Below are positions 3,191-62,358 of a stretch of DNA of 64,000 nucleotides, piece by piece. The stretch comes from an uncultured Bacteroidales bacterium (lineage in GTDB: Bacteria; Bacteroidota; Bacteroidia; Bacteroidales; VadinHA17). A model generated the notes under the pieces. It was given only the letters and a program-made list of their open reading frames with translations. It did no database searches and had not been told where the DNA came from. Location of the stretch: assembly GCA_963831935.1 (NCBI GenBank), contig CAWHSH010000014.1, positions 192,353 to 256,352 on the forward strand, in the 5' to 3' direction. Position 1 is the first letter of the stretch; every line of letters begins with the position of its first letter. The translations under genes were made by a program, and so were the position numbers.

Positions 3191-3225
3191 CCTGCCTGCC
3201 CTGACCAAAGCGTCAGGGGATTGGG
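3191..3225. repeat. GC-rich hairpin (CCTGCCTGCCCTGAC-N6-GTCAGGGG)
   Basis: ccctgac caaagc gtcaggg inverted repeat. Near-identical motif at 35372..35400 (gccctgaccggagcgtcagggggg). Confidence 0.7.
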
Positions 3226-8289: not shown

Positions 8290-9560
8290 TTAGATTTTCC
8301 ATGGATCGCGCATTGGCTGATTAATAAGCCGGTTAGCTCCATCGTCATCGATAAACTGCTGTTTTACAGGGTCATATTTCAAATTCCTGCCAAGTCTCAC
8401 CGCTATAACTCCGAGGTTTACAATTGAGCATGACCTGTGTCCGTTTGATTCGTTAAGGGCAAATTTCTTACGGGTAAGGACTGATTCTGTGAAAGTTGTG
8501 ATTTGAGGTTCAGGGTCAGGCAGCGAATCGACAAGCTTTTCCATATCCTTAATATCGGACCGGAATCCTTTATAGACCTTCCCGTGTGGACCTTCGATGT
8601 AGGCAGCGTCCTTATCGCGGTTTTCACCGTCAAGGATTATCCGGCAGCCATCAGCATAGGTATAAGTTATTCTGCGCCACGATCCGACAGCATCATAGTG
8701 CTGCTGGGGGGCATCTATTTCCACTGATACGGGACCTGTATCGTCCTTTCCCAGAAGGTATTGAACAGGATCGAGATAATGCTGGCCCATATCGCCCAGT
8801 CCGCCCCCGTCATAATCCCAGTATCCGCGGAATTTTGAATGTACCCTTTCTGGATTATAAGGCTTGTAAGGAGCGGGTCCCAGCCAGAAGTTATAATCGA
8901 GTTCGGGGGGAACAGGCATTGGCTGCAGATTATAAAGGCCACTCCAATAAAATTTCCAGTCGTATCCTGTAATGCCGCTGACAGTCACTTTAAGCGGCCA
9001 GCCAAGAACGCCGCTTGCAACGAGTTTTTTCAGAGGTTTAACAGTTGTGCCCAAGACCATAAAACTGGTCCTTGAACCTGAACCAGGTATTAAGCCTGAA
9101 CATTCTGCCATTTTTCTGCACTGCTTCCACCACTTGTATTCCTTCACCGATAGTCCTGGTCATTGGCTTCTCACACCAGATATCCTTTCCCGCTTCAGCA
9201 GCCATTTTTGAAATTATACCATGCCAGTGGGGAGGTGTTGCAATATGCACGATATCGATGTCAGGGCGGGCCAGCAGTTCACGGAAATCGTGGTAACCCG
9301 AAGGATTTCCTCCTGCCTCTGCGATTGCCTGGCTGAGGTGATTCTTATCAACATCGCAAACAGCCAGCACACGGGTACCTTCGTAAGGTATGTGTCCTCT
9401 GCCCATTCCGCCCACGCCGATAATACCTTTGGTAAGCTGGTCACTGGGAGCTGTATATCCCTGCCCTCCAAGCACATGTCTCGGGATTAATCGTAAATGC
9501 CAGAGCAGCAGCAGCGCTTTTTTTCAGAAAATCACGTCTGCCCGGATTATCTTTTTTCAT
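8290..9560 (-). CDS. TAT-exported Gfo/Idh/MocA-family oxidoreductase; 2 frame changes
   Basis: N-terminus MKKDNPGRRDFLKKSAAAALAF (twin-arginine signal, ATG at 9560). Rossmann part in 9038..9475 (GIIGVGGMGRGH...DIVHIATPPHWH...CEKPM). C-terminal domain in 8290..9147. Confidence 0.85.
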
Positions 9561-9672
9561 CAGTTTATAATTTGTTTTTTAATGGTCAGATGCCTGCCTG
9601 TCGGCAGACAGGGAATATCCATGAGTAATCATTTCGGTTTGTGATTTTACTTTTTAATCATGGATATTTCAT
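9561..9672 (-). promoter_or_regulatory. Structured 5' leader/promoter module, copy 1 (92 bp shared with 61507..61598, plus a 20-bp GC-hairpin insertion at 9592..9611)
   Basis: In gene orientation: atgaaatatccatgattaaaaagtaaaatcacaaaccgaaatgattactcatggatattcc[ctgtctgccgacaggcaggc]atctgaccattaaaaaacaaattataaactg ATG. Nested inverted repeats: AATATCCATGA/TCATGGATATT and TAATCA/TGATTA. Confidence 0.7.
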
Positions 9673-9722
9673 AATGAATTCTTTATTTTTCTGTAATAAC
9701 CTGACTTAAAATAGTGTCTGTG

Positions 9723-10931
9723 TCACAACCGGAGGTTTGTCCCAATTGACTTTAATCTGTAACAGGGACTCGGACTCTGTTTTTTCAGGCAATAAACCGA
9801 CACTGCCAACAGATAAATCATACAGGCAATTAAAAGTGTCATACCCCACGCGATGCTGCTCAGGTCGCTTATCCATCCTACCAGCAGGGGGATGACCGCT
9901 CCTCCGGAAATCGCCATCATCACAAGTCCTGAAATTTCGTTGCTCCTGTCGGGATATCTCTCAACGGCTAATGAGAATACAAGAGGCCAGATATTTGCAA
10001 CTGCCAGTACCAATGAGGAATACCAGTCCCCAGGCAAGTACTGTTGACTTAACAAGCAATATGGCAACAAGACAAACGATCCCAAGAACAGAGGTCCATA
10101 TAAAGAACTTTCTCGAGGAGAATCTGGTAAGTATTATTGCGCCTGCAAATGTCCCAAGCATTCTGCCAAGAAAATATACACTCCGTCCTGATCTCGGCGG
10201 CTGTCTGATCGATGCCGAACTGTTTAATAAGGAATTGCCCCGAATTGGAATTAAATCCGACATCAACTCCGACAACAAGAAAAATGGAAAGTACCAATCA
10301 ACAGAACATATCCGGTTTTCAGCAACTTAAACGAGGATGCAAATGTTGCTTTGTATCCTTCCACCCTTGTTTCATTGATCTTTGCTGACCCAAGCCACAA
10401 TACAGTAAGGATCGATACAATGCCGAAGACCAGGAACAATAATTTCCAGTCGCCAAATTGAAGGCAAAGAATCCTGCCAACGGAGCTCCAATCATCGATC
10501 CGATTGCTTTCACGAATTGTGAAAAGCTCAGAAAACTCGAAGCTCTGTTCCCTGGAACGACATCGACAAGCAACGGGTTGGCTGAAACCTGGACAATCGT
10601 ATTTCCGATCCCTAAAAGTGCAAAGCCTACCAGCACCATCGCAAAGGAATAAAAGAAGAAAGGAACGAGCAATCCCAGGGCTGTAACTCCCATCCCGAAT
10701 GTTAAGCATGGCTTTCTTACCAAGCCGCGATTGCAGTACTCCAACCGGGACCGAGAGAATAAAAAACCACAGGAATGCAGCCGATGGGATCAGCTGTGCT
10801 ACTGTGGCGCTGAGGCTCATGTCTTTGCTTACTCGGTCGACTCCTATGCCGACAAGATCAACAAAACTCATGACAAAGAATGCCATGAGTACAGGTGATA
10901 TCTTCGAAATGTTAACTTTTTGTGTGGCCAT
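9723..10931 (-). CDS. Sugar MFS transporter (FucP/glucose-galactose type); at least 3 frame changes
   Basis: Fragments 10263..10931, 10319..10744, 9961..10278 and 9723..10085 join into an MFS protein (MATQKVNISKISPVLMAFFVMSFVDLVGIG...LLGIGNTIVQVSANPLL...). Confidence 0.75.
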
Positions 10932-10970
10932 AATATTTAAGGTTCAGATTTAAAGGTTAAATGTCTAAAT

Positions 10971-11058
10971 TCCCCCTTTGAAGGCCTGCCTGCATCGCCT
11001 TCGTGTAGCCGCTTCGGCCTTCGGTCGTAGAAGTCGACCTGTGGCGACGAAGACGGCA
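10971..11058. repeat. GC-rich composite repeat (TCCCCCTTTGAAGG head, CCTGCCTGC, two CTTCGG motifs)
   Basis: tccccctttgaaggcctgcctgcatcgccttcgtgtagccgcttcggccttcggtcg... Head identical to the 53586 and 53709 copies. Lies between the MFS start and the ROK stop. Confidence 0.6.
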
Positions 11059-11060
11059 GT

Positions 11061-12002
11061 TTACATAAGTGGCAATGCATGCTGTACCGCCTTCCAGAAG
11101 CCATCATCAAGAAGGTATGCAGCACCGATAAAAGCGGCATCCTCCTTAAGCTCAGAAAGTGCAACCTTACAGTTGCATCCTTCCTTCTTAAGACTGTTCT
11201 CGAAGATATTTCCAAACAGGTTATAAGCATGAGAAATATTGCCTCCCACCACCACAATCTCAGCTTTGAACCTTATAAGCCACGGAGCAAGAAATACTCC
11301 CAGATTATTTCCGAATTCAGTGAAAAGGTCCATCACTATTTTATCCTTTCCTGCCAGCTCGGAAAATTCCTTGACACCGCTCAGTTCTTTGCCGGTAAGT
11401 TTTTTATATTTCCCTATAAACCATCTCGTTGAAAAGTAATCGTCAGCAATATTGTCGCCATACGGAAGATGATAAACACAGCCCAGTCTGGGGACTTCAG
11501 GACCATCTACGATGGGGATCTGGTCGCTGACAAATGCAGAACCAAACCCGGTACCAAGAGTTACCGACATTGACCGGTTTGCACCTTTGAAGCTTTTCCG
11601 ACCAGTGCTTCACCGACAGCAAATGTCGAAACATCATTCATGAACCGGACAGGGAATCCGTCAGGGAATTCAAGGTTGTCGGATATGGCGTTCCTGGACA
11701 TTGACATCCGTAGAGATGTTCATATTTTGCGACACCCTTAATATAGCTTATCCCCTTCACATAATCAAAAGGACCGGGCATCCCGAAACCAATTCCCTTC
11801 AATGATTTCGACGGTATTTTCTTTAATAACTTCTGATAGAGCCTGAACCCATACACCAATTATCTCACTGGCTTCTGCCTTATTGTTGACAGCCCTCTCG
11901 GTACGCGTTTCATTTAAGATTTTGAATGATCTCAAGGTCAACTGCGGCACAGCTGATATGACTGCCGCCAATATCAACACCAATTGCCAGATTTTGCTTC
12001 AT
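11061..12002 (-). CDS. ROK-family sugar kinase; at least 3 frame changes
   Basis: N-terminus MKQNLAIGVDIGGSHISCAAVD (ATG at 12002). Fragments 11765..11983, 11638..11859 and 11061..11570 (..TLGTGFGSAFV..., ...VVGGNISHAY...). Confidence 0.8.
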
Positions 12003-35311: not shown

Positions 35312-35408
35312 AACCCAACCCAAACCCTTCCCAGGGAGGGTTTGTTAAATAATCAAATTAAGCCCCCTTCAGGCCTGCCCTGACCGGAGCGTCAGGGGGG
35401 TTGGGGTT
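35312..35408. repeat. GC-rich compound repeat (terminal inverted repeat AACCCAACCC ... GGGGTTGGGGTT; hairpins CAAACCCTTCC/GGAGGGTTTG and CCCTGAC/GTCAGGG)
   Basis: Read directly. Overlaps the last ~17 codons and the stop of maf. Confidence 0.7.
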
Positions 35409-49919: not shown

Positions 49920-49942
49920 TGTCAGTACTTTATTTAATCTGC

Positions 49943-50014
49943 ACGGGAGGAGAGACTCGAACTCCCGACACCTGGTTTTGGAGACCAGTGCTCTACCAAC
50001 TGAGCTACACCCGT
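49943..50014 (-). tRNA. tRNA-Trp (anticodon CCA)
   Basis: Cloverleaf folded by hand: ACGGGTG-TA-GCTC..GAGC-A-CTGGT-CTCCAAA-ACCAG-...GGGAG-TTCGAGT-CTCTC-CTCCCGT-G. One U6:U67 acceptor mismatch. Confidence 0.85.
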
Positions 50015-50099
50015 TTGTATCTGACCGTTGCTTCAACCGCGATGACCGGATGATCGCGATGCATCGCGATTTTACAATACCAGTTTGTATCCAAAACCC

Positions 50100-51287
50100 T
50101 TATTCAAGTATTTGAGTTACCGCTCCGGCTCCAACAGTCCTTCCGCCTTCACGTATAGCAAAACGAAGTCCTACATTTATTGCGACCGGGTAAATAAGAT
50201 CAACAGTAATAGTCACGTTATCGCCGGGCATCACCATTTCAGTTCCTTCAGGAAGAGTTATCTCTCCGGTAATATCGAGTGTCCTGACATAGAATTGCGG
50301 ACGATATTTATTATGGAATGGAGTATGACGTCCACCTTCTTCTTTTTTAAGAACGTAAATCTCAGCCTTCAGTTTGGTATGAGGTGTAATTGAACCTGGT
50401 TTTGCAAGAACCATACCTCTTTTGATCTCCTTCTTATCAACGCCACGAAGAAGAAGTCCGACGTTATCGCCAGCTTCTCCCCTGTCGAGTATCTTGCGGA
50501 ACATTTCAACACCTGTACAAACTGTTTTACGTTTTTCAGCACCAAGACCTATCATTTCGAGTTCATCGCTTGTAACAACAACACCTGTTTCAATACGGCC
50601 TGTTGCAACTGTACCACGTCCGGTGATTGAGAATACATCCTCAACCGGCATAAGAAATGGTTTCTCATTTTCGCGTTTAGGAATCGGGATATAAGAATCA
50701 ACTGCATCCATGAGTTCCATAACTTTTTCTTCCCATTTGGCTTCACCGTGCATGGCACCAAGAGCAGAGCCACGTATGACTGGAGCATTGTCGCCATCGA
50801 ATTCGTAGAAGTTGAGCAGATCGCGTACTTCCATTTCAACCAGATCAAGAAGTTCTTCATCGTCAACCAGGTCAACCTTATTCATAAAAACGAGCACTTT
50901 GGGAACGTTAACCTGGTGTGCAAGAAGTATATGTTCACGTGTTTGCGGCATTGGACCATCATCAGCGGCAACTACAAGTATTGCTCCGTCCATCTGTGCG
51001 GCACCTGTAACCATATTTTTAATATAGTCAGCGTGACCGGGACAGTCGACGTGCGCATAGTGGCGTGTTGCAGTCTGATATTCAACGTGCGCAGTATTAA
51101 TGGTAATACCTCTTTCCTTTTCCTCAGGAGCATTATCAATTGAGTCAAAATCCCTGATTTCAGAAAGACCTTTTTTATGAAGAACCATTGTGATCGCTGC
51201 TGTAAGAGTGGTCTTACCATGGTCAACGTGACCGATGGTGCCAATATTTACGTGCGGTTTCGATCTGTCAAATTTTTCTTTTGCCAT
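50100..51287 (-). CDS. tuf: Elongation factor Tu
   Basis: Intact 395-aa ORF ([19 protein letters not shown]). Confidence 0.98.
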
Positions 51288-51348
51288 AACTCCAAGCGTA
51301 TTAAATTTAAGTATATTTATTTCAGTATTAAAATCATTTTTCCCGATG

Positions 51349-51420
51349 AGCCGGAGGGGGGAATTGAACCCCCGACCCCTTCCTTACCAAGGAAGTGCTC
51401 TACCCCTGAGCTACTCTGGC
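51349..51420 (-). tRNA. tRNA-Thr (anticodon GGT)
   Basis: GCCAGAG-TA-GCTC-AGGGGTA-GAGC-A-CTTCC-TTGGTAA-GGAAG-...GGGGG-TTCAATT-CCCCC-CTCCGGC-T. A4:C69 mismatch. Confidence 0.85.
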
Positions 51421-51431
51421 ATCAAAAAGTG

Positions 51432-51504
51432 AGCGGGAGACGGAGCTCGAATCCGCGACCCTTAGCTTGGAAGGCTAATGCTCTACCAACTGAGCTACTC
51501 CCGC
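51432..51504 (-). tRNA. tRNA-Gly (anticodon TCC)
   Basis: GCGGGAG...TTAGC-CTTCCAA-GCTAA...GCGGA-TTCGAGC-TCCGT-CTCCCGC-T. Confidence 0.9.
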
Positions 51505-51574
51505 CTTATATCATCCAAAGAGGTCCGTCCCAGCATCTTCAACCCTTTCAGGATTACGGCTCAGCCCCGTTCAG

Positions 51575-51657
51575 TGGGGAGAGCAGGATTCGAACCTACG
51601 AAGGCATTCGCCAGCAGATTTACAGTCTGCCCCAGTTGGCCGCTTTGGTATCTCCCC
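51575..51657 (-). tRNA. tRNA-Tyr (anticodon GTA), long variable arm
   Basis: GGGGAGA...GCAGA-CTGTAAA-TCTGC-TGGCGAATGCCTTC-GTAGG-TTCGAAT-CCTGC-TCTCCCC-A. Confidence 0.9.
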
Positions 51658-51706
51658 TTGAAACAGAGTTTATCCCCCTATGACACACATTTACAACTCT
51701 TTCAAG

Positions 51707-51780
51707 AGCCGATGAAGGGATTCGAACCCCCGACCTGCAGATTACAAATCAGCTGCTCTGACCAACTGAGCTACATCGGC
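51707..51780 (-). tRNA. tRNA-Thr (anticodon TGT)
   Basis: GCCGATG-TA-GCTC..GAGC-A-GCTGA-TTTGTAA-TCTGC-...GGGGG-TTCGAAT-CCCTT-CATCGGC-T. One U:U mismatch in the anticodon stem. Confidence 0.8.
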
Positions 51781-61380: not shown

Positions 61381-61506
61381 TTAACAGCCGCATAAATAAA
61401 AGTGTAAAGATAGGTTTTTAAGGGAAATAGTGATATCGCCTCACCGGACACGACTACATCAATTAAAATTTCTAAATTTGAATAAACGTAAAGTCAGGTC
61501 AAACGC

Positions 61507-61598
61507 ATGAAATATCCATGATAAAAAAGTATAATCACAAACCGAAATGATTATTCATGGATATTCCATCTGACCATTAAAAAACAAATTATAAACAG
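61507..61598 (+). promoter_or_regulatory. Structured 5' leader/promoter module, copy 2 (empty site relative to 9561..9672)
   Basis: atgaaatatccatgataaaaaagtataatcacaaaccgaaatgattattcatggatattccatctgaccattaaaaaacaaattataaacag ATG. 88 of 92 positions identical to copy 1 (hand alignment, gapless apart from the 20-bp insertion in copy 1). Confidence 0.7.
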
Positions 61599-62358
61599 AT
61601 GAAAAAAACTATAATGATCACCGGCGCCACGGCCGGATTTGGATGGGCAACAGCAGTAAAATTTGCTGAAAACGGATACGATATAATAATCACAGGGAGA
61701 AGAAAGGACACGATTGGATAAGCTTGAAAAAGAACTATCCGGTCAGAATGCAAAGGTATTGTCTTTGAATTTCGATGTCAGGAACAAATCTGAAGTAGAA
61801 TCCACAGTCAGAGATCTGCCTGCAGAATGGAGGAACATTGATATCCTTGTCAACAATGCAGGTCTTGCTGTCGGACTTGCTCACATTGACGACGGTGACA
61901 CTGAAGATTGGGACAGGATGATCGATACCAATGTGAAAGGACTCCTTTACGTGACGAGGGCAATTGCCCCTTTGATGGTAGCAAGGAATACCGGCCATAT
62001 TTTCAACATATCGTCGATTGCAGGCAAAGAGGTCTACGAAAACGGAAATGTATATTGTGCATCAAAGCATGCAGTGGATGCCCTGTCGAAAGCAATGAGG
62101 ATAGATCTTCTAAGACATAATATCAGGGTCACAAATATAGCTCCCGGAATGGCTTTAACAGAGTTCTCACTTGTCAGGTTTAAAGGTGACAGGGAGAAAG
62201 CGGATGAGGTTTATAAGGGAGTTGAAGCCCTGACTGCCGGCGATATTGCAGATGTAATTTATTTTTGCGCAACCCTCCCGGACCGTGTCTGCATAAATGA
62301 CATCGCAATTACACCGACACAGCAGGCAGCAGTCGGGAAGGTTTATCTCAAATTGTGA
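61599..62358 (+). CDS. SDR-family NAD(P)-dependent oxidoreductase (YdfG-like); 1 frame change near 61710
   Basis: MKKTIMITGATAGFGWATAVKF (TGxxxGxG), then ORF 61714..62358 with NNAG and YCASKHAV (YxxxK). Confidence 0.85.

Follow-up and report, generated by a model that had tools for sequence, protein, structure and literature searches.

Why do two oxidoreductase genes with unrelated coding regions carry the same structured leader directly upstream of their start codons? This question is raised by a 64,000-nt stretch of DNA from an uncultured Bacteroidales bacterium (GenBank assembly GCA_963831935.1, contig CAWHSH010000014.1, positions 192,353 to 256,352 of the forward strand; hereafter, the window). 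A 92-bp leader containing a long hairpin precedes both a YdfG-type short-chain dehydrogenase (SDR) gene and a gene for a Gfo/Idh/MocA oxidoreductase with a twin-arginine translocation (TAT) signal. The original prediction took this leader for a portable cassette rather than the result of a gene duplication, and proposed a shared operator, a cis-regulatory RNA or a promoter carrier resembling a MITE (miniature inverted-repeat transposable element). The portable cassette is borne out by many more copies that precede unrelated genes, and the leader is probably a copy of a small, non-autonomous, site-specific mobile element residing at ATGAAA start codons. The element is dispersed and polymorphic in its insertion, has a hexameric target, a fixed orientation and a position at start codons, and possesses neither terminal inverted repeats nor a promoter of its own.

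Two Copies of the Leader in the Window

Copy A occupies 61507-61598 on the + strand, before ATG 61599, and copy B occupies 9561-9672 on the − strand, before ATG 9560; each continues into ATGAAAAAA. Recounting both copies gives the predicted 88 identities in the 92 positions upstream of the ATG once a 20-bp insert, CCTGTCTGCCGACAGGCAGG, is taken out of copy B (the placement of this insert is ambiguous by 1-2 nt). With a further 9/9 through ATGAAAAAA, the copies are identical at 97 of 101 positions (window 61507-61607, + strand, compared with 9672-9552, − strand; MAFFT alignment and direct count). The identity beyond the ATG, which had been noticed before, is therefore real, but it is no chance continuation: ATGAAA belongs to the repeat and is present at both ends of every copy. 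The 55-nt hairpin core has two matches in the window at three mismatches or fewer, with none expected from 100 shuffles of the window, and a search of the 64 kb with a covariance model derived from 68 copies yields copies A and B and no others. The features of the two loci are as follows.

61507..61604, + strand: copy A, 98 nt with the two terminal ATGAAA counted, a net gain of 92 bp; covariance model score 90.2 bits, E = 5.5e-15
61507..61512, + strand: left ATGAAA of copy A, at the native start codon position, now orphaned upstream of the hairpin
61511..61565, + strand: main hairpin of copy A, with outer stem AATATCCATGA/TCATGGATATT and inner stem ATAATCA/TGATTAT
61566..61598, + strand: 3' module of copy A, consisting of CCATCTGACC, an A/T-rich tract and AACAG
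61599..61604, + strand: right ATGAAA of copy A, the regenerated start codon and Lys codon, used by the downstream gene
61599..62358, + strand: YdfG-type SDR gene, host of copy A, with one frameshift near 61710
9555..9672, − strand: copy B, 118 nt including both ATGAAA and the nested 20-bp insert; covariance model score 51.7 bits, E = 1.8e-07
8290..9560, − strand: TAT-signal Gfo/Idh/MocA oxidoreductase gene, host of copy B, with at least two frameshifts

The nested inverted repeats that had been described are present, with outer arms at 61511-61521 and 61555-61565 around the inner pair (A)TAATCA/TGATTA(T), and the fold has a free energy of −19.9 kcal/mol (z = −5.8). Three points were absent from that first reading: the start codon is included in the repeat and duplicated, there are no terminal inverted repeats, and the 20-bp insert of copy B is a second, REP-like repeat.

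Dispersal of the Element

Both loci were compared with contigs of four metagenome runs, from wetland and soil, in which relatives of the organism are present. Copy A is joined by many different sequences, whose junctions fall at 61506/61507 (left) and 61604-61606 (right), and these sharp ends indicate that the repeat runs from ATGAAAT... through CAGATGAAA, start codon included. The summed k-mer depth of the element is 50-700, compared with about 4-5 for single-copy flanks (runs X1 and X2); in wetland metagenomes, the element depth thus amounts to tens to more than 100 times that of the flanks. If the density in the window held genome-wide, a genome would contain at least on the order of a hundred copies.

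A 21-mer from the conserved middle of the element (GGATATTCCATCTGACCATTA) identifies 15 loci in 12 metagenome-assembled genomes (MAGs), which are labeled Draconibacterium, Salinivirgaceae, Paludibacteraceae, Bacteroidales or Bacteroidetes. A pattern fixing only the two ends (ATGAAATATCCAT, N66-96, CAGATGAAA) finds at least 120 metagenome loci, and the element family is abundant in Bacteroidales and Marinilabiliales genomes. Since the hairpin interior is subfamily-specific, a 21-mer from the hairpin loop (AATCACAAACCGAAATGATTA) has no genome matches. Hairpin interiors are 79-93% identical within one MAG, compared with 64% on average between MAGs, which is the pattern expected from spread inside genomes. 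Searches of viral contigs, plasmids and phage records found no copy. Family-wide copy counts given below (e.g., 97 and 134) are drawn from the metagenome copies among the matches listed together with the genome loci. Seven matches to the end pattern (L027, L045, L052, L095, L097, L118 and L119) are chance hits inside open reading frames (ORFs).

An assembly artifact, i.e., a chimera or collapsed repeat limited to this assembly and perhaps to two copies, had been named as a caveat. The several frameshifted genes in the window do suggest that sequence quality or integrity is imperfect. However, the same element with the same boundaries is found in independent assemblies from many studies and habitats, as well as in Illumina unitigs, which refutes this explanation and leaves it next to no probability.

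Filled and Empty Sites

Comparison of orthologous sites points to insertion. SDR orthologs at loci L136-L139 (88-89% identity) lie in a syntenic region comprising genes for an FAD protein, an outer-membrane β-barrel protein and UbiE, followed divergently by the SDR gene and a Tricorn protease gene. These empty sites read ...ATGAAAAAAACA... / ..ATGAAAAAAACAATAATG, with the layout TAATTTTG, 27 nt, ATGAAA AAAACAATAATG. Directly after that ATGAAA, the window has exactly 92 bases more (TATCC...AACAGATGAAA), and the covariance model finds no copy in any of L136-L139. Also, the site of copy B is empty in two metagenome strains, in which contigs of runs X2 and X5 join 9560 to 9679. ATGAAA is present once at an empty site and twice at a filled site, and the orientation is fixed: the order is always ATGAAA-element, in one direction. 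As each insertion recreates its own target, tandem pairs would be expected, and such pairs with one common central ATGAAA are present at L092:2231-2418 and L114:1-155 (− strand), each containing two different copies. The L092 pair precedes a pirin-like gene.

A classical MITE, i.e., an internally deleted insertion sequence (IS) moved by a DDE transposase with a 6-bp target-site duplication and a strong preference for ATGAAA, would share many of these properties: the element is small, non-coding, high in copy number and polymorphic between strains, a 6-bp direct repeat stands at both ends, and a filled site exceeds an empty one by exactly the element and one repeat. To this extent, the earlier label "MITE-like" is appropriate in spirit, as orthologous sites are either filled or empty. 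However, terminal inverted repeats are absent in each of the seven possible boundary registers (left end ATGAAATATCCAT, right end ..AACAGATGAAA), and the inverted repeats that do exist (the hairpin and CATCTG/CAGATG) are all internal. In addition, so strict an orientation with respect to an asymmetric hexamer would be unusual among DDE elements, and no related longer element is present in 0.8 Mb of fetched loci. A classical MITE is thus an unlikely explanation.

Position at Start Codons

In the loci chosen by the internal 21-mer, the left end is ATGAAA or a one-base variant of it in 15/15 cases and the right end in 14/15. The ends played no part in choosing these 15 loci, and in 12 of them an ORF of at least 100 aa begins at the right-hand ATG. 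Overall, about 75-80% of copies supply the start codon of a real ORF. Among the matches listed, the right-hand ATG opens an ORF of at least 60 aa in 75 of 97 informative family-like copies, a count from which the seven chance matches were left out (they are still within the host-gene survey and the left-flank counts). The exceptions to this rule include frameshifted genes, a 51-aa gene and the first members of tandem pairs. In the fetched DNA, an ORF of at least 100 aa follows 74% of the element-borne ATGAAA sequences and 20.5% of the others (Fisher p ~1e-20). True members are never located inside an ORF in the sense direction; the seven exceptions are the unrelated chance matches. On the two points by which the original prediction could have been refuted, copy number and positional preference, many copies exist elsewhere and show a strong bias toward start codons.

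The downstream genes, named from their N-terminal sequences, include those for leucyl-tRNA synthetase (LeuRS), GatB, endonuclease IV (Nfo), pirin, rhamnose mutarotase, acylphosphatase, a GIY-YIG protein and many signal-peptide proteins. Some of them, e.g., those for LeuRS and GatB, are likely housekeeping genes and probably essential, as judged from these names. Similar genes of different lineages bear different element subfamilies: pirin-like genes at L037, L092 and L087, genes for RNase J-like proteins of the metallo-β-lactamase fold at L023 and L025, and rhamnose mutarotase-like genes at L007 and L013. Such a distribution suggests that the same conserved ATGAAA start received insertions repeatedly and independently.

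Architecture of the Element

The element is roughly 90-118 nt long and begins with ATGAAA, continues with a long hairpin and CCATCTGACC, followed by roughly 20-25 nt of A/T-rich sequence, and ends with CAGATGAAA, so that the right end reads AACAG-ATGAAA. The base of the hairpin, AAATATCCAT/ATGGATATT, is nearly invariant in 68 aligned copies, and ATG and CAT on either side of it can contribute three further pairs across an A-C mismatch; the conserved foot is ATG-A-AATATCCAT with ATGGATATT-C-CAT. The interior of the hairpin is variable and specific to each subfamily. A motif, ACMAAC..(3-6 nt)..RATGAW, is kept across subfamilies with otherwise differing interiors (e.g., at 61538-61553; columns 32-50 of alignment A2) and echoes the terminal ATGAA.

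The 3' module is conserved even in copies chosen by their two ends alone. It places AAAA at −14 to −11 relative to the new ATG, and its CATCTG (61567-61572) can potentially pair with CAGATG (61596-61601), a helix that takes in the right start codon.

Relation to Known Mobile Repeats

The absence of terminal inverted repeats, the two-sided foot of the hairpin, the orientation fixed by an asymmetric target and the target-like far end are reminiscent of IS200/IS605-type and REP/RAYT systems, which are mobilized by HUH/Y1 enzymes, more than of MITEs of the DDE type. A transposase of this class that recognizes a single-stranded hairpin (IS200/IS605 or RAYT type) might act on the element in trans; this is a speculative proposal, and a rather doubtful one. 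The element resembles REP/REPIN sequences associated with RAYTs and the PATEs derived from IS200/IS605 in being short, non-coding, present in high copy number and built from a hairpin without terminal inverted repeats. REP/REPIN populations are likewise homogeneous within a genome and have a short conserved foot at the hairpin base; the foot of the present element (ATGA...CCAT) is similar to that of the "double-foot" REPs of subclass 2.4 (Quentin et al., 2018; PMC6006769). With IS200/IS605, the element shares insertion in a fixed orientation beside a specific target, which is 4-5 nt long in those systems.

There are also clear differences. The element has an ATGR foot and an A/T-rich stem, unlike the GT[AG]G foot and G+C-rich stem of REPs. 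Unlike REP/REPIN and IS200/IS605, the element has a second, non-palindromic 3' module. Unlike those of IS200/IS605, its 6-mer target coincides with a start codon and is reproduced at the far end, and unlike that of IS608, its hairpin starts inside the target. In contrast to REP/RAYT systems, no cognate Y1 gene was found in the fetched loci or the window. Bacteroidetes have Y1 subclasses whose repeats are atypical or "double-foot" (Quentin et al., 2018; PMC6006769), but the supplement of that study contains no ATATCCAT-type repeat, and the repeats it lists are G+C-rich, unlike the element.

Other small repeats have partial similarities. Correia elements (CREE/NEMIS) of Neisseria, ERIC, RUP and BOX are dispersed near gene starts as repeats of about 100-150 bp, are co-transcribed with their neighbors, form RNA hairpins and vary in presence between strains. 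Correia elements have terminal inverted repeats, duplicate a TA target, in some cases create promoters and have no fixed relation to start codons, whereas the present element lacks both terminal inverted repeats and a promoter and is placed on ATGAAA with single-base precision. IStrons, in which a group I intron is combined with an IS200/IS605 element, and Rickettsia palindromic elements resemble it in that their own sequence appears to offset the damage of insertion. In the present case, the offsetting would occur at translation initiation, by means of a rebuilt start codon and initiation region; the 92-nt element, which has no Rfam match, has no ribozyme or splicing as in IStrons and is not translated in frame as Rickettsia palindromic elements are.

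Transcription and the Native Initiation Region

If the element lands on native start codons, its left flank should retain the signals of the original gene. In Bacteroidetes, which do without Shine-Dalgarno recognition and rely on unstructured A-rich leaders and AUG depletion, the initiation signature consists of A at −3, −6 and −12/−13 and a run of A at −14 to −11, and extra AUGs are depleted near starts (Baez et al., 2019; PMC6847099). Among the matches listed, A is enriched relative to the left ATG of 134 copies at −3 (57%), −6 (54%) and −12 (66%), compared with about 30% at neighboring positions. In the same copies, matches to the strict Bacteroidetes −7 box (TAnnTTTG) are most frequent 20-31 nt upstream of the left end. 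Together, the initiation signature and the promoter box indicate that the element is inserted at native start codons and downstream of native promoters. Upstream of copy A, a candidate box was read from the sequence as follows.

61473..61480, + strand: TAAATTTG, candidate −7 box of the native promoter, 26 nt ahead of the left ATGAAA

The equivalent native box TAATTTTG is also present at the empty orthologous SDR sites.

These data bear on the idea of a promoter or operator that travels as a cassette and drives or represses the genes downstream. In its favor, copy A contains a sigma-70-like pair, ATGAAA-17-TATAAT, matching at 10 of 12 positions, and the long hairpin palindrome could in principle bind a dimeric protein. 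However, TATAAT, located in the variable interior, lacks conservation, as it is replaced by TAAAAT in copy B and missing from other subfamilies, and promoter-like matches in the region are no more common than in shuffled sequences (2 compared with 1.9); this sigma-70 promoter was rejected as a candidate. Also, the Bacteroidetes −7 box is present on the sense strand of 0/97 copies, and the native box lies upstream of the insertion. Such a cassette is hence very improbable, and the "promoter carrier" part of the earlier label does not stand. A perfect −7 box TAATTTTG does occur on the antisense strand, 13 nt from the right end, in 13 of the 97 copies, all of the L003-type subfamily; it points into the hairpin, away from the gene.

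Predicted Effects in the Leader RNA

Secondary structure was predicted for 79 distinct copies folded with their flanks. In this set, the 13 nt following the left AUG (+4 to +16) have an unpaired probability of 0.23, compared with 0.63 for those following the right AUG. The right AUG itself has an unpaired probability of 0.15, being held mostly in the weak 6-bp CAUCUG/CAGAUG helix. By these predictions, the hairpin should mask the orphaned AUG, and the new AUG should lie in an A-rich, partly sequestered context. The chances that the element acts at the RNA level in this manner, through a masked old AUG and a surrogate initiation region, appear to be roughly even. Translation could be left unaffected, dampened or regulated conditionally. 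A conserved upstream ORF (MKYP...) and translational coupling were rejected as candidates: the stop lies at varying positions, and the two ATGs are in random phase (32/29/22).

RNA thermometers and translational riboswitch platforms similarly have a helix that pairs the AUG and an A/U-rich loop upstream. The element differs from them in lacking a conserved ligand-type core tied to gene function, and in being mobile, with some orthologous genes that carry it and others that lack it.

As a conserved cis-regulatory leader, whether a riboswitch, an RNA thermometer or an RNA that binds a protein, the element would define a regulon, its spread being secondary. The architecture of a stable hairpin followed by the start-codon helix is conserved and largely pairs the right AUG, CCATCTGACC and ACMAAC..RATGAW are strongly conserved even in end-selected copies, compensatory changes keep the stem in one diverged copy, and the position relative to the start codon is fixed; all these features would suit such a leader. 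However, the downstream genes have no functional coherence, and orthologous genes of close relatives lack the element. Also, copies are more alike within a genome than between genomes, tandem arrays occur, about 20% of copies have no following ORF and covariation is slight. Rfam searches, at gathering thresholds for the whole window and at E up to 10 for the locus, returned chance-level hits only, to snoRNA and miRNA models on the wrong strand. The shared operator or dedicated cis-regulatory RNA of the original prediction is accordingly not upheld for genes so unrelated, whose close relatives do without the element, and a regulatory RNA leader as the primary identity of the element is improbable. 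A secondary, exapted regulatory effect is conceivable, though rather unlikely.

A Probable Mobile Element That Rebuilds Start Codons

The mobile element favored here would work as follows. It would integrate one way at ATGAAA, a hexamer that most often serves these organisms as a start codon followed by a Lys codon. The left ATGAAA would be the old start codon, still located behind the gene's own promoter and initiation context, and the right ATGAAA would be followed by the rest of the gene, leaving the protein unchanged. The element would then be transcribed within the 5' leader. Its hairpin, which starts inside the old ATGAAA, would occlude the 13 nt after the old AUG, and the 3' module would provide an A-rich initiation region of the Bacteroidetes type for the new AUG, which could be held in the weak CAUCUG/CAGAUG helix. 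Insertions at gene starts would be tolerated and those at internal ATGAAA sites purged. One-way specificity for ATGAAA together with this purging might explain why about three quarters of the copies are at gene starts, and recognition of "start-ness" itself would not be required.

Several observations weigh against this interpretation. First, the doubled ATGAAA fits a 6-bp target duplication and equally fits insertion beside ATGAAA by an element that itself ends in ATGAAA. The 5-6 nt to the left of the copy B junction differ between alleles (TTCATT in the filled and CAACT in the empty one); this is read as ordinary divergence, because the same leader segment also varies among the empty SDR orthologs. 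Second, non-inverted ends make a classical DDE route unlikely, and a motif scan of the window and 0.8 Mb of fetched loci detected no Y1/HUH motif. Third, both host genes in the window are frameshifted, so that insertion may not have been harmless at these loci, and a paired right AUG means that the element may lower or regulate translation and need not be neutral.

Two further points against it concern the RNA level. As for transcription of the hairpin, a single metatranscriptome contig of low depth covers part of the hairpin, the 3' module and 58 nt downstream, which is weak evidence of co-transcription; two further RNA searches found nothing. As for covariation of the stems, the main stem is nearly invariant, RNAalifold recovers this invariant stem only, the inner stem of the largest subfamily hardly covaries at all, and the extension, like the inner stem, covaries only weakly. 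One diverged copy (L009:872-968) does preserve the stem by compensatory changes (AAACACCCAC/GUAGGGUGUU). Because the main stem is nearly invariant in sequence, its roles are not separable, and the hairpin could matter as DNA, as RNA or as both.

Beyond the preferred mobile element, a bolder proposal combines several claims: that the element represents an undescribed mobile class homing to ATG-AAA starts with a portable initiation module made up of a hairpin to silence the old AUG, an A-rich leader and a helix to sequester the start codon, that it is moved in trans by an enzyme of the HUH/Y1 type, and that on the order of a hundred unrelated genes per genome, some of them likely essential, share one structured leader, which would exert translational control as a mobile element and might respond to temperature or a trans-acting factor. 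It is unlikely that this combination holds in full. No description of the element was found in Rfam or in the literature searched, and no small mobile repeat that is aimed at and rebuilds the start codon itself is known to us or was found in that literature.

A Nested REP-Like Repeat and the Host Loci

The 20-bp insert of copy B belongs to a second repeat family, in which GCCTG is followed by a G+C-rich hairpin of 6-7 bp (e.g., GCCTGCCCTGAC..GTCAGGG).

9592..9612, + strand: nested REP-like GC-rich hairpin (the "20-bp insertion" of copy B), GCCTG-CCTGTC-GGCA-GACAGG

Two relatives stand alone in the window, at 3194-3218 and 35373-35397; one of these standalone repeats is located between convergent ORFs and one overlaps the stop-codon end of a predicted ORF. 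G+C-rich hairpins are present at the same internal position of the element, just after GGATATTCC, in L046, L051, L057 and L110, which come from unrelated metagenomes, and L020:2796-2923 carries another insert there. In form, the nested GCCTG repeat is similar to the subclass 2.6 REPs of Bacteroidetes Y1 (PMC6006769).

Four genes with one to several frameshifts are located at 8290-11983 (the Gfo gene, an MFS transporter gene and a ROK-type kinase gene) and 61599-62358 (the SDR gene), and their long neighbors (862, 800 and 426 aa) are intact. Such clustering may point to true pseudogenes, in a sugar-use cluster under decay, more than to random indels of the assembly. Beside it stand the facts that an extra base at 9491 in the Gfo gene is absent from three metagenome strains and that the SDR of copy A, with its frameshift repaired, is 98% identical to an intact 252-aa homolog (P0001). 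The Logan contig encoding this homolog (1464 nt) starts only 23 nt before the gene, as would be expected if short-read assembly broke inside the repeat, and such elements may fragment Bacteroidales MAGs at gene starts. Elsewhere in the window, five tRNA genes are clustered at 49942-51780 (− strand). GC skew was discarded as a signal of replication-strand bias, as the skew in the window follows gene orientation.

Implications

If the interpretation is correct, a selfish element has colonized the most sensitive positions of many genes by bringing a substitute initiation region with it. This would be especially telling in Bacteroidetes, which initiate translation without Shine-Dalgarno recognition (PMC6847099). 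For genome annotation, gene callers may pick the wrong one of the two ATGAAA sequences, and short-read assemblies break at these repeats. The combination of a short asymmetric target and a fixed orientation could indicate an unrecognized site-specific DNA-insertion activity. The copies would also constitute a natural set of near-identical 5' leaders, on which neutrality and common translational control of the downstream genes could be tested against each other.

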